DNA of 64,000 nt, from positions 32,001 to 96,000 of the forward strand of contig CAYWJO010000007.1 in the NCBI GenBank assembly GCA_964458565.1, written 5' to 3'. The notes beneath the pieces were generated by a model. The model was given only the letters and a program-made list of their open reading frames with translations, had not been told where the DNA came from and searched no databases. Below, piece after piece: positions 28,231-32,704 of the stretch. Made by a program: the position numbers and the translations under genes. Position 1 is the stretch's first letter. Every line of letters starts with the position of its first letter. The DNA is from an uncultured archaeon (GTDB lineage: Archaea > Asgardarchaeota > Thorarchaeia > Thorarchaeales > Thorarchaeaceae).

Positions 28231-29151
28231 ATGACTACCAAGATGCGCTCGTTTCATTGGAAGGATGACTTTGAATTAGTAAAGTCCTTTCTAATTGAGA
28301 CATTTGAGTTGACTCCGTACCACAACTGGATTCCTTCAAGACTCGAAAATGTAAGATTTGGTCCTTGTGGGCCCGAATACCAAGATGAAGAGGACGAATA
28401 TATCAAAATTTGGGAGGAAATTACAGATTTAGGTACAAAGATAATAGCTGTATCCTATATGAAACCATCACTGGAATGTTGGATTCATACACATCCTGAT
28501 TACAAGCACGTTGAGAGAGAGATCATTCTCTGGACTGAGAATCATGCAAAAGAGATGAAACCCGATGCAGGTGAACGAAAAATCAGCTTCATCACGCGTG
28601 ACATAGATGAGAAGCGCGTTTCACTATTGAACGAAATGGGTTATCAAGAGATTGAGCTATATGGAGACTTACAAGTACGCCCTACTGATTTACCTGCTCC
28701 TGATTATACAGTGCCTGATGGATTCTCGATCACACACGCTCTCATGGAGCAAGATTTTGAGAAATACACAGAAGTACAAGGATCTGTCTTTCCACACTGC
28801 AAAAATATGACTAAGAAGTTGCTGATGCATTATGCTTCAGCTTCGTTCTACAACGCAGAACTTGATATTGTAGCTGTAGCTCCAGATGGCAGGTTTGCTG
28901 CATTCTGTACAGTGCGAATAGATCCCGTAAGCAAAATCGCTGAACTAGAACCCGTTGGTACAAATCCTGAGTTCAGGAAATTGGGCCTTGCGAGAGCTGT
29001 GGTACTAGAGGGACTACATCGTGTTAAGAAATACAATCCTTCCGCGATATGCATACCTGGTGCTGCAGCGACTGAGGGGGCGCGGAATCTCTACAAATCA
29101 GTTGGTTTCCAAATAATCGGTGGCGAATACCTCTGGAATAAGACGATTTAG
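28231..29151 (+). CDS. Tandem GNAT acetyltransferase
   Basis: EPVGT.PEFRKLGLA motif A; A..LYKSVGF. Confidence 0.88.
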   Translation: MTTKMRSFHWKDDFELVKSFLIETFELTPYHNWIPSRLENVRFGPCGPEYQDEEDEYIKIWEEITDLGTKIIAVSYMKPSLECWIHTHPDYKHVEREIILWTENHAKEMKPDAGERKISFITRDIDEKRVSLLNEMGYQEIELYGDLQVRPTDLPAPDYTVPDGFSITHALMEQDFEKYTEVQGSVFPHCKNMTKKLLMHYASASFYNAELDIVAVAPDGRFAAFCTVRIDPVSKIAELEPVGTNPEFRKLGLARAVVLEGLHRVKKYNPSAICIPGAAATEGARNLYKSVGFQIIGGEYLWNKTI

Positions 29152-29313: not shown

Positions 29314-29419
29314 GGGCCCGTGGCATAGCCTGGTGAAATCGACCACGGTCATTTCGGGTTTTTATTGCGCCGCTCTGATAAGGCGGATGTCGGGTGTTCA
29401 AATCACCCCGGGCCCACCA
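29314..29419 (+). tRNA. tRNA-Ile(GAT) with about 28-nt D-loop intron (29334-29361, about 19/20)
   Basis: Acceptor GGGCCCG/CGGGCCC, anticodon loop CT-GAT-AA (29377-29379), T-arm GGGTG-TTCAAAT-CACCC, CCA; BHB with central helix GCCT/GGGT. Confidence 0.88.
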
Positions 29420-29486
29420 CTTTCTATTGAATTGAACCCAATCCTTTTTCACAAAGTACAACTCATGTTATTTGCTGTTGTTTGCT

Positions 29487-30332
29487 ATGACAAAGTCTAA
29501 CAATTTACCAGTAGTCATTGATATTAGCACACGTCTAACAATGGTTGGTTTTGCAGGAGAAGTAGCTCCACGTTTCGTTTGGCCCACTGTTGTTGGATAT
29601 TCAATAGATCATAGTATGATAGATAGTGATTCCTCAGTTCCTTACAAGATCGGCAAGTATGCATTAGACTCGTTATCCCCTATGCTAGTCTATCCGTTAA
29701 AGGCTGGAATCATCGAAGATTGGGATGCAATTGAGGCTATCTTGGCATTTACTTTCAAATCACTTGAAATCAAATCTTCTGAGAGTAAAGTTTTGATAAC
29801 AGAATCAATATCTTCTCCCCCTGAAACTCACCAACATCTGATGCAATTGATGTTTCATAAATTCGGTGTGAGTCATCTCTACGTGACACTTCGACAGGTA
29901 CTCGCTCTATATGCTGTCCGGAAAGGATCAGGTGTTGTCATCGATTTCGAGCCAGACTATGCATTAATCGTACCAATATTCGAAGGTCTTGCCATTCCAC
30001 ATGTAAAAGAAATCCTGAATCTGCCGGTCATAACGGGATTTGAGCTTTCGTTTCTTGCAGAACGATTAATAGCTGCAGTTGAGAATACAAATCCAGACAT
30101 CTACGATGATTTATACAGCAACATTGTACTTACGGGTAGTTCTACAACAACACCTCAATTCAGAGAGAGCCTTGAGAAAGAGATTGCTGAACGGATAGCC
30201 TCGGATAGAAACTTCTCAATAATTGATATTCCAGAAAAGCTCTACATGGCTTGGATTGGAGGGAGCAGGTTAGCAAATGTATCATCATTCAATGAGGTAT
30301 GGATGAGTCGTACTGAATTCACACAGAAATGA
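29487..30332 (+). CDS. Actin-related protein (Asgard ARP), internally deleted
   Basis: VVID....VGFAGE.APR..WPTVVG, YPL..GII.DWD, VLITE, VPIFEG, LYSNIVLTG, WIGGS.LA. Confidence 0.9.
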   Translation: MTKSNNLPVVIDISTRLTMVGFAGEVAPRFVWPTVVGYSIDHSMIDSDSSVPYKIGKYALDSLSPMLVYPLKAGIIEDWDAIEAILAFTFKSLEIKSSESKVLITESISSPPETHQHLMQLMFHKFGVSHLYVTLRQVLALYAVRKGSGVVIDFEPDYALIVPIFEGLAIPHVKEILNLPVITGFELSFLAERLIAAVENTNPDIYDDLYSNIVLTGSSTTTPQFRESLEKEIAERIASDRNFSIIDIPEKLYMAWIGGSRLANVSSFNEVWMSRTEFTQK

Positions 30333-30386
30333 CCTGATCGACCGCAGTAGCAACAACTTGCATTGAATTCCATCTCCTATGGGATT

Positions 30387-32513
30387 CTAGAACATACCAC
30401 TCAACCACTGGTGAATATGCGCAATAACAGGAAGGAAGAGTGTAGCAGTCAGGGAAATCACGACAAGCAAAGTATTGATTGATGGGCCTGCAGTGTCTTT
30501 GAATGGGTCGCCCACCATATCTCCACGTACTGAGTTCCGGTGTATTTGATCATATCGTGGGTGGTCATGGTCATACTCAGGAGACTCAATCATCTTCTTT
30601 GTATTATCCCAAGCCCCTCCAGCATTACTCATCAATAGGGCCATGATAAAGCCGACCAAGACTGCACCACCAAGATATCCACCAAGCGCTTCAAGCCCCA
30701 AGATTGAACCAGTTAAAATTGTAACACCTATTACGATGATAGTAGATGGCATGAGTTCTCTTATAGCGCCAGATGTTGCTATTTCAATACATTTGTCATA
30801 ATCTGGTTTTGAGGTTCCTTCAAGAATACCAGGATCTACGCGGAACTGTCTACGAATCTCTTCAATCATTCGTCCTGCATTACGATCAACACCAAGAATG
30901 AGCATCGCAGTAAATGTAATTGGCACTAACGCTCCGATGAATGCACCCGCCAAGATGAATGGATCTGCTATATTGACAATAATCTCTTCTCCAATGAGCA
31001 TCTCCGCTGCTTCAACAAATGCTGCAAATAAGGCAAGAACGGATATAGCTGCAGACCCAATAGCAAATCCCTTTGTGATTGCCTTAGCCGTATTACCTGC
31101 TGCATCTAATTTATCACAAGCTATAATGGCTTCTTCTGAAGCATTCGATTGTTCAATAATACCTCTCGCGTTATCAACAATAGGTCCATAGCTATCAGAG
31201 CTCATGGTAAGTCCATTTGTTGCCAGGAGTCCAACTGCAGCAATTGCTACCGCATAAATTCCCCCCATCCAACCTCCAAGTCCCAGAGATGTTGTTGTCG
31301 AACCGAGGATGAATGATGCCACAAGTGCTACAATAACTCCAATTACTGAAGGTACGGCACTGAGAAGACCGTATGAATATCCTGACAGTATGAGGTTCGC
31401 TGTGCTCTTCTCAGCATTTTCTACCATATTCCTTACTGGTTGAAATCCGAAGAGACCTTTATCATTTGTAAAGACATCAGAGGTGAATCCTATAAACACA
31501 CCAGCAAGTAGTCCAAAGATTGCAGAGGCTGCAATTACAATATCAATTCCAAGAATGAGAATTACAGCTACAACCAATACACCAAAGAGAATAGTTGTTA
31601 TGTAAGTGCCTCTGTTAAGGGCTGGACCAGGATCATCCTGTTCATTAGGTCTTACCAAATAAACTCCAATCACTGATGCGATGGTACCTAATGCTGCTAT
31701 TACTAGAGGCAGGAGTCCAAAGGCGTATGGTAATGCAAATGTTGCATCAAGTCCTGCTCCTAGAAGGGCAGCAGCCAGAATTGCGGCGACATTGCTATCG
31801 AAGATGTCTGCACCTGTTCCAGCAACATCTCCCACGTTGTCGCCAACAGCGTCTGCAATTGCCGCAGGATTTCTCGGGTCATCCTCTGGAATGTGCTGCT
31901 CGATTTTACCAACAATGTCTGCTGACATATCCGCAGTTTTGGTAAAGATTCCTCCACCTGCTTTTGCAAACAGCGCCACAGTACTCGCGCCAAATGAAAA
32001 GCCTGTAATCATCTCCCATAGGAATGGGGCCGCAATTCCTGGAAATATCACGAACCACATCAAGTAAAGAGCTGATAATCCAACAAGAGCAATGCCTGCT
32101 ATCATCAGCCCCATTACCGAACCCGATCTAAACGCTATCTTGAATGCAGGACCAAGCCCTCCTTCTGCGGCTGCAGCTGCTGTTCGTCGATTCGCTTGTG
32201 TTGCCACTGCCAGACCTATATATCCCGCTCCCATACTAGCAAAGGATCCTATGATGTATGAGATTGCAATGGGTATTCCATAGTCAACAAAGACAATTGC
32301 AATGACAACTGCTAGGAACAGAGTAAAGAATGTAAGTATACGATATTGTATCTTAATGAAAGAGTCAGCTCCATCTTGTATCAACCGACTGACTTCATGC
32401 ATTCTCTTGTCACCTTCATCCGCTCTCATAACTACGCGATATGTGTATAGAGCTACAAGGATGGCAAGTAGACCTGATAAAAGCGAAATGGATAGAAATA
32501 GAAGATCTGACAT
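30387..32513 (-). CDS. hppA: Membrane-bound pyrophosphatase, K+-independent type
   Basis: GGGIFTKTAD, PEDDPRNP, DAVGDNVGD, DSYGPIVDNA, GNTAKA (Lys indicates K+-independence), GDPFKDTAGP. Confidence 0.95.
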   Translation of the reverse strand: MSDLLFLSISLLSGLLAILVALYTYRVVMRADEGDKRMHEVSRLIQDGADSFIKIQYRILTFFTLFLAVVIAIVFVDYGIPIAISYIIGSFASMGAGYIGLAVATQANRRTAAAAAEGGLGPAFKIAFRSGSVMGLMIAGIALVGLSALYLMWFVIFPGIAAPFLWEMITGFSFGASTVALFAKAGGGIFTKTADMSADIVGKIEQHIPEDDPRNPAAIADAVGDNVGDVAGTGADIFDSNVAAILAAALLGAGLDATFALPYAFGLLPLVIAALGTIASVIGVYLVRPNEQDDPGPALNRGTYITTILFGVLVVAVILILGIDIVIAASAIFGLLAGVFIGFTSDVFTNDKGLFGFQPVRNMVENAEKSTANLILSGYSYGLLSAVPSVIGVIVALVASFILGSTTTSLGLGGWMGGIYAVAIAAVGLLATNGLTMSSDSYGPIVDNARGIIEQSNASEEAIIACDKLDAAGNTAKAITKGFAIGSAAISVLALFAAFVEAAEMLIGEEIIVNIADPFILAGAFIGALVPITFTAMLILGVDRNAGRMIEEIRRQFRVDPGILEGTSKPDYDKCIEIATSGAIRELMPSTIIVIGVTILTGSILGLEALGGYLGGAVLVGFIMALLMSNAGGAWDNTKKMIESPEYDHDHPRYDQIHRNSVRGDMVGDPFKDTAGPSINTLLVVISLTATLFLPVIAHIHQWLSGMF

Positions 32514-32704
32514 TGCGGGCTCCTGTTGAGGATTTTCAAACCATATTATAGACATTGCTATGCATCGGCTAATTACAAGCCGGACCATTTGGTATGCCCA
32601 ACTTCAATGAATTGTAGTACGGATATATTGGAACACGTGTTCCAATCCTAATTTTGGTATCTATAGTAAAACCAATCAATTTGTTTTCTGTCTATCATCT
32701 CGCA

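Follow-up and report, generated by a model that had tools for sequence, protein, structure and literature searches.

Thorarchaeal mini-actins lack subdomain 4 and carry a remodelled nucleotide cleft

In the window (the whole 64,000-nucleotide stretch of DNA analysed here), an open reading frame on the plus strand at 29487–30332 encodes a protein of 281 amino acids plus stop with a three-subdomain actin fold (subdomains 1, 2 and 3), hereafter mini-actin. ORF calling placed its ATG start codon at 29487 and its stop codon at 30330–30332. An in-frame TTG at 29472, five codons 5' of the ATG, is an unlikely start because the N-termini of the orthologues (MTK...) coincide with the ATG at 29487. Sixty-seven nucleotides 5' of the reading frame and on the same strand, reading of the sequence identified a tRNA-Ile(GAU) gene at 29314–29419 with ∼27 extra nucleotides in its D arm; it was missed by ARAGORN, and the Rfam tRNA model matched only its 3' part (29356–29416; 29.7 bits). 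Orthologous tRNA-Ile genes in relatives carry no D-arm insert, and that of G014 (L053:4452–4560) has a T-arm insert instead. Besides the tRNA gene, the neighbours of mini-actin are metabolic: a flavodoxin, an AAT-family acyltransferase and an acetyl-CoA hydrolase. A promoter and terminator scan near mini-actin gave nothing above chance with a bacterial-type procedure that is unsuited to archaea.

Mini-actin matched the Pfam Actin family (PF00022) in two stretches with an E value of 7.1e-56 and 190 bits, against a curated cut-off of 27 bits, which confirms both the reading frame and the preliminary description of an actin-like protein of about 281 amino acids. Searches against solved structures also aligned it to actins in two stretches (E values of 1e-42 to 1e-46), with about 76–80 target residues skipped. 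Its best solved relative was 9wc4, 'HC1 actin', where residues 4–179 of the query aligned with 28–207 of the chain and residues 173–279 with 284–390. Solved chains matching at E values up to 0.01 numbered 159, and the best 60 of these 159 were all actins. Identity to Thorarchaeal actins was 40–42% over the shared parts, and the W-loop, the WIGGS helix and subdomains 1–3 were recognisable in the alignment. Public annotations of the relatives read 'hypothetical protein' or 'actin-related protein'. A search for fused or longer forms of mini-actin returned only eukaryotic tandem actins and no domain fusion. Searches of the ESM Atlas by features and by shape found only ordinary eukaryotic actin clusters, including a 313-amino-acid chordate 'isoform X2' cluster that may be a gene-model artefact. 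Two Promethearchaeota proteins (P0013 and P0016, 356–360 amino acids) that BLAST aligned over 98% of mini-actin are Lokiarchaeial-type actins, 15–20 residues shorter than usual.

The mini-actin family comprises 11 distinct members with 40–67% identity, all of which share the deletion and the remodelled cleft. A first set contained nine proteins of 264–290 amino acids (46–67% identity); exhaustive searching added two more distant members, P0122 and P0121, the latter with a full-length form, P0277. All named sources are Candidatus Thorarchaeota metagenome-assembled genomes (MAGs). When residues were numbered by alignment on a 375-amino-acid eukaryotic actin, every family member showed a gap at actin residues 176–258, 83 residues that make up essentially all of subdomain 4, and single-residue gaps recurred family-wide at positions 64 and 91. 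In the window copy the junction lies between Lys174 and Glu175 (30006–30011, plus strand), where actin position 175 is joined directly to 259. The flanking strand (...IPHA-) is kept, followed by the segment 259–274 including the 262–274 'plug'. The missing region had been put at residues 181–268, which was about right in extent except that the plug segment is retained.

An AlphaFold2 model of mini-actin from a 90-sequence alignment reached a pLDDT of 90.7 and a pTM of 0.88, and only the N-terminus and residues 43–49 (the D-loop) were disordered. For P0009, a member of the second branch (branch B) with 264 amino acids and without the C-terminal helices, the pLDDT was 92.1. Subdomain 4 was missing from the models of both branches, and neither contained a replacement domain. 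Foldseek aligned the mini-actin model to actins with TM-scores of 0.86–0.91 by query and ∼0.68 by target. Structural alignment with VIA-align gave a Z-score of 33.0 for actin 4pl7_A (rmsd 1.6 Å over 261 residues), 31–32 for Arp3 and Arp4, 25.9 for the dynactin chain 5adx_J and 16.6 for AlfA (rmsd 3.9 Å). The four-subdomain architecture (1, 2, 3 and 4) of the actin family is thus not that of the mini-actin family, and the models describe mini-actin as a stable three-subdomain actin core.

The nucleotide site is altered at nearly every element. Phosphate loop 1, which in actin reads D-N-G-S/T-G-x-x-K, is D-I-(G/S)-T-R-L-T-M in the family; in the window copy it is DISTRLTM (residues 12–19; 29520–29543, this and the following sites being on the plus strand), with actin N12 replaced by I, G15 by R and K18 by M. 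The G15 position holds Arg in nine of the ten members that cover it, and the K18 position Met or Ile in all. Phosphate loop 2, D-S-G-D-G-V in actin, is D-(F/C)-E-P-(D/E)-Y in the family and DFEPDY in the window copy (residues 153–158; 29943–29960), corresponding to G156→E (invariant), D157→P, G158→D and V159→Y. These readings confirm the degenerate DISTR and DFEPD loops noted earlier. In the sensor loop (residues 72–73; 29700–29705), Glu72-His73 of actin is replaced by K-(A/G/S), K-A in the window copy, with the Lys invariant. Both catalytic residues are absent: an invariant Arg (Arg136; 29892–29894) occupies the position of Gln137, and His161 is replaced by L, F, V, C, I, S or A. The adenosine motif SGG(S/T)TM reads TGSSTT (residues 216–221; 30132–30149), with Gly302 changed to Ser (Gly in one member) and Met305 to Thr; Tyr306 became Thr (Pro or Arg in two members) and Lys336 Leu. 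Lys213 and Glu214 of actin were deleted along with subdomain 4. The residues K72, R136, D153, E155 and H172 are invariant across the family, and nearly all family-specific invariant changes fall in the former nucleotide cleft.

In actin, the backbone amides of the phosphate-loop glycines hold the phosphates; in mini-actin, three of these glycines are Arg, Glu and Asp. Canonical ATP binding and hydrolysis appear very unlikely because the three loop glycines, Lys18, Gln137, His161 and Lys336 are lost. The proposal that the protein is nucleotide-free was therefore borne out at the level of sequence, where loops, catalytic residues and adenosine motif are all altered. We hold the anatomy of mini-actin and its loss of canonical nucleotide handling with high confidence, and are equally sure that it is a nucleotide-independent, non-canonical actin derivative under selection.

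The surfaces of mini-actin have diverged unevenly. In the branch closest to the window copy, subdomains 1, 2 and 3 are 49%, 33% and 39% identical to those of Thorarchaeal actin; identity within that branch is ∼65% in all three. The base of subdomain 2 and the W-loop segments remain actin-like, and residues 286–294 of subdomain 3 are partly kept. In the target-binding cleft, Y143 is mostly Ile or Met, G146 is Arg, Lys or Gln, and T148 is variable and mostly charged; at position 168, members carry Arg, Glu, Tyr, His or Asn, with the Gly of actin kept only in the window copy. The lateral-contact residue K113 is Pro or Ser in the window copy's branch. The preliminary description had read the D-loop as short. 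In the window copy and its closest relatives it has the length of eukaryotic actin, only two residues less than in Asgard actins; a shortened D-loop is confined to the second branch. The tip of the D-loop in the window copy's branch is acidic and Ser-rich. The C-terminus is variable or cut: the window copy ends ∼9–10 residues earlier than its orthologues, at a TGA (30330–30332, plus strand) where these have a Gly codon (GGA) and continue ...QEGPEVFGREI, and the second branch is shorter by at least 28 residues, with truncated C-terminal helices. The codons that follow the TGA (window 30330–30386) still resemble the ...PE... tail of the orthologues. By its sequence, the TGA is a recent nonsense change that would trim about nine C-terminal residues. 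With the cleft, C-terminus, D-loop tip and K113 all altered, canonical co-polymerisation with actin seems unlikely. The supposedly intact face of subdomains 1 and 3 did not hold up, as residues 143, 146, 148 and 168 are changed, and the idea of a profilin or gelsolin decoy acting through a conserved face drew no support from the changed cleft.

Selection on the family was assessed from dN/dS (Nei–Gojobori). The sole unsaturated pair, P0003 and P0004, gave 0.146 (dN 0.087, dS 0.60), and the other computable pairs gave 0.06–0.23. The family is under purifying selection. At least 11 diverged members have an uninterrupted reading frame, and a protein identical to the window copy occurs on four contigs. 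Relatives share the deletion: the same gap was found in all members, at a dN/dS of ∼0.15, and orthologues from independent assemblies as well as four sequencing runs have it, so that it is not peculiar to this assembly. In these runs, from salt-marsh samples, contigs of X1, X5 and X6 (DNA) and X7 (an RNA library) bridge the junction without differences. A 272-nucleotide contig from a salt-marsh metatranscriptome is identical to 29874–30145; strand, level and transcript ends cannot be read from it. It is a weak sign of transcription and not proof, because DNA can carry over into such libraries.

Ten flanking genes are shared in the same order with L036, the contig of the mini-actin orthologue P0005, and the context of mini-actin is chromosomal and vertically inherited. 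Compared with L036, L052 and L053, the conserved block reads TRM – cyclophilin – AP_endonuc_2 – acetyl-CoA hydrolase/GNAT – transporter – Acs. The same tRNA-Ile immediately precedes mini-actin in L051, L036 and L037, whereas in L039 the two are 1.6 kb apart, with the tRNA again upstream; it is also found at the syntenic site of the mini-actin-less genomes L052 and L053. Outside the host, one species genome, G016 (Candidatus Thorarchaeota archaeon CSMAG_1925), carries mini-actin. Two of its genus-level neighbours without the gene have the same block and the tRNA-Ile, and no remnant of mini-actin was found in their block, including a 700-nucleotide gap in G014. The surroundings of the gene (28231–29151 and 30387–32588) are a local hot spot of rearrangement. 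No conserved cytoskeletal or operon partner was found among the compared neighbourhoods, which are loosely conserved, and no adaptor or centromere-like gene lies near mini-actin. Two further differences between the blocks concern other genes. The GNAT gene at 28231–29151 has no counterpart in the L036, L052 and L053 blocks, and the membrane pyrophosphatase gene has, in G014 and G018, the reverse orientation and a place across AP_endonuc_2 from the one it has in the window, while the L036 block lacks it.

As mini-actin is located directly 3' of a tRNA-Ile gene and is patchily distributed, we considered an origin by a mobile element or tRNA integration. This was rejected as the main reading: there is no integrase and no repeat, housekeeping synteny is kept, and the same tRNA site exists elsewhere without the gene. 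Between a gain of mini-actin beside the tRNA and its loss, these comparisons cannot decide.

The host genome is a Thorarchaeia MAG of 3.7 Mb, 93% complete, whose actin family consists of one full-length actin and mini-actin, with no other member. Mini-actin was present in 2 of 87 Thorarchaeia species genomes, the host and G016, and in 2 of 400 Asgard species genomes; nearly all other Thorarchaeia species genomes have full-length actin only. The 85 Thorarchaeia without it include five genus-level neighbours of the host that are at least 74% complete. Any role of mini-actin is dispensable, given this absence from 85 of 87 Thorarchaeia species genomes. The marks of the Lokiactin group, namely high conservation, near-universal presence and one copy per genome, are not those of mini-actin.

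Alignment and phylogeny with Asgard actins placed mini-actins with the Thorarchaeal Lokiactins. In a careful maximum-likelihood tree, mini-actins and Thorarchaeal actins together were separated from the other 30 sequences with support of 100/100; the tree set lacked crenactin, Arp2/3 and other outgroups, and the cyanobacterial protein P0150 had been removed from it. A first quick tree had put mini-actins outside all actins beside P0150. This placement was flagged as long branches meeting, and the tree was rebuilt without P0150, whereupon the quick tree likewise gave 100% support for mini-actins with Thorarchaeal actins, apart from every other Asgard and eukaryotic actin. The placement is therefore sensitive to P0150, whose inclusion moves the family away from Thorarchaeal actins. 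Arp1, the only eukaryotic Arp in the tree, was not joined by mini-actins; Arp2–11 were compared by structure alone. The mini-actin stem measured 1.57 changes per site, against 0.01–0.05 among Thorarchaeal actins. The probable course is duplication of a Thorarchaeal Lokiactin, rapid remodelling and later losses, a reading we hold with some reserve because of the long branch and the missing outgroups. Mini-actin is a late, lineage-specific invention and not an ancestral trait.

The host's own cytoskeleton genes are located outside the window. Its only full-length actin gene is on the minus strand at L001:1501–2661 (G000:C1:109551–110711). In this gene an insert of exactly 30 nucleotides, which contains an in-frame TAA, separates ...SLKTFQ from MWVSRKEF...; the insert is absent from 13 other Thorarchaeal actins, and its removal restores the consensus TFQKMWVSRKEF. 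The RNA folds into a bulge-helix-bulge-like structure (minimum free energy −38.7 kcal/mol, z −2.6), in which a 4-bp helix (CCAG/CUGG) is flanked by bulges AAU and UAA and accompanied by an inner helix of 9 bp and an outer one of 12 bp. No second copy of the insert occurs in the genome, which encodes two splicing-endonuclease paralogues. A two-domain gelsolin (Pfam Gelsolin, E values of 4e-16 and 2e-11) is encoded on the plus strand of the same contig, ∼17 kb from actin, at G000:C1:91967–92482, and two weak single-domain gelsolin candidates were seen on C10 and C33. A Pfam PF00235 search of the genome for profilin gave no match, and the controls likewise gave none.

Overall, we propose a model in which a Lokiactin duplicate of Thorarchaeota lost subdomain 4 (actin 176–258) and conserved charged residues came to line its rebuilt cleft: actin positions 15 and 137 now hold Arg, 72 holds Lys, 156 Glu and 158 Asp. 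As judged from the alignment, these residues may occupy the site of Mg-ATP and keep the core locked, which would make mini-actin nucleotide-independent. Mini-actin would not propagate the canonical two-stranded filament of actin, as it lacks the subdomain-4 contacts and most of the remaining polymer contacts have been altered. The earlier term 'non-polymerising' does not follow from the deletion alone, since AlfA polymerises without this subdomain. The best explanation overall, to which we give roughly even credence, is that of a fast-evolving, Thorarchaeota-specific Lokiactin paralogue that would serve the Lokiactin cytoskeleton as an ARP-like accessory partner which the cell can do without. 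Docking through its subdomain 1/3 side, it could attach to an actin monomer or to the end of a filament, the pointed end being the simplest case, and would then present no subdomain 4 to the next subunit. The host genome holds possible targets in its full-length actin and two-domain gelsolin. However, the would-be docking surfaces (146, 148, 168, D-loop tip, K113 and C-terminus) are themselves changed. That mini-actin acts on Lokiactin as an end-binder or monomer-binder is a tentative suggestion, and the more specific idea of a nucleotide-free, three-subdomain actin as a dedicated pointed-end terminator or monomer trap is unlikely, though worth stating.

Replacement of most polymer-contact and cleft residues would also fit a scaffold or pseudo-ATPase that has given up acting on actin and uses the actin core as a stable fold for another partner, be it through HSA-helix-type binding as in nuclear Arps or through a different ligand held in the rebuilt cleft. 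Family-specific conservation is strongest in this former nucleotide cleft and not on a known actin-binding face, the neighbouring genes are the metabolic ones named above together with the tRNA, and ATP-independent or divergent Arps (Arp7/9, Arp8 and Arp11) match the model at Z-scores of 24–29. Yet the parent is the cell's actin, the base of subdomain 2 and the W-loop segments are still actin-like, and neither a conserved operon partner nor a domain fusion accompanies the gene in its loosely conserved neighbourhood. We regard such a scaffold as doubtful, slightly less plausible than binding to Lokiactin. A further alternative is a minimal polymer of the AlfA kind, forming filaments of its own through new interfaces, either independently of nucleotide or with an unconventional site. 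AlfA polymerises although it is IIb-less (bioRxiv 10.1101/186080), the window copy keeps a normal-length D-loop and the plug segment, and the family's own surface is ∼65% conserved. This alternative is improbable: AlfA keeps five nucleotide motifs, whereas in mini-actin phosphate 1, phosphate 2 and adenosine are degenerate and the catalytic residues gone; in the second branch the D-loop is shortened and the C-terminal helices are missing; the structural match is Z 16.6 to AlfA against 33 to actin; and an adaptor or centromere-like gene is missing nearby. A decaying duplicate or assembly artefact without function would suit the rare, patchy distribution, the stop codon where orthologues have Gly, and the rank of mini-actin as the fastest-evolving gene of its syntenic block (62% identity against 64–91% for its neighbours), but it is hardly credible in view of a frame intact in at least 11 members, a dN/dS of ∼0.15, invariant family residues, confident folds, a junction bridged in four independent runs and an identical protein on four contigs. 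The accessory-partner model remains our preferred reading; in broader terms, mini-actin probably works without nucleotide as a regulator or scaffold derived from actin, and not as the usual filament-former.

Work on Asgard actins and their regulators (profilin and gelsolin) treats them as the root from which the eukaryotic cytoskeleton grew, and divergent Asgard actin paralogues are known from trees only, as 'ARPs' to which no function has been given. Against this background, an Asgard lineage made, and kept under selection, a radically simplified actin derivative with neither subdomain 4 nor a canonical nucleotide site, and the family is a genuine, conserved addition to the actin/ARP kind. 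Should mini-actin bind actin, it would show in a prokaryote the regulation of actin by its own paralogues on which Arp2/3 and Arp11 are built, and a terminator or trap would parallel capping of the Arp11 or tropomodulin type, invented independently in archaea. If it does not bind actin, it would offer a compact, probably nucleotide-independent core for asking what share nucleotide and subdomain 4 have in fold stability. If the model is true, side chains can take over from Mg-ATP in stabilising an actin core of the eukaryotic type. The weight of mini-actin for eukaryogenesis is limited because it is rare.

Our literature search found no description of an Asgard actin without subdomain 4. Mini-actin shares with Lokiactin the fold, the Pfam Actin match, subdomains 1–3 and the tree placement (100/100), but differs in the loss of residues 176–258, in the phosphate loops, Q137, H161, K18 and K336, and in its occurrence in 2 of 87 genomes against nearly all. 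Another protein without subdomain 4 is the cyanobacterial 'actin family protein' of Brasilonema bromeliae (WP_169154283.1, P0150; 289 amino acids), for which we found no description in print. It is of the eukaryote-like type, with degenerate phosphate loops (DITGGLVK and NITNDF). In contrast to mini-actin, it has a short linker in place of roughly actin 183–252 (judged by eye) and sits on a long, separate branch; it seems to be an independent case of subdomain-4 loss. Plasmodium Alp1 carries an insertion in subdomain 4, not a loss.

Nuclear Arps with divergent nucleotide sites (Arp7/Arp9, Arp8 and Arp4) are actin-fold, non-polymerising structural modules and match the mini-actin model at Z-scores of 25–31. 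They differ in being eukaryotic, in having four subdomains with insertions and in working in chromatin remodellers via HSA helices; nothing comparable to the HSA-type arrangement was seen for mini-actin. Yeast Arp10 has only ∼284 amino acids. The nearest functional analogy, and the basis of the capping hypothesis, is Arp10/Arp11, a very divergent actin paralogue that terminates the Arp1 filament of dynactin, without extending it, by capping the pointed end (PMC3583065). Arp11 nevertheless keeps four subdomains and is no orthologue, as mini-actins branch with Thorarchaeal actins, and p62/p25/p27-like partners such as those of dynactin are not known in the host genome. The nearest described architecture is that of AlfA (PDB 6f95; bioRxiv 10.1101/190744), which has ∼270–280 amino acids and, like mini-actin, no subdomain IIb (actin subdomain 4); it is the only described actin-family branch without IIb that we found. 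In AlfA, the plasmid-segregating actin of Bacillus subtilis pLS32, a five-residue loop replaces subdomain IIb; the protein forms polymers by means of larger cross-strand contacts, and its mode of ATP binding is new (bioRxiv 10.1101/186080). However, AlfA is a ParM-like bacterial actin that keeps its five nucleotide motifs, binds ATP and polymerises, and the nearest relatives of mini-actin are Asgard and eukaryotic actins. The loss of subdomain 4 in mini-actin is independent of that in AlfA and took place inside the eukaryote-like actin lineage.
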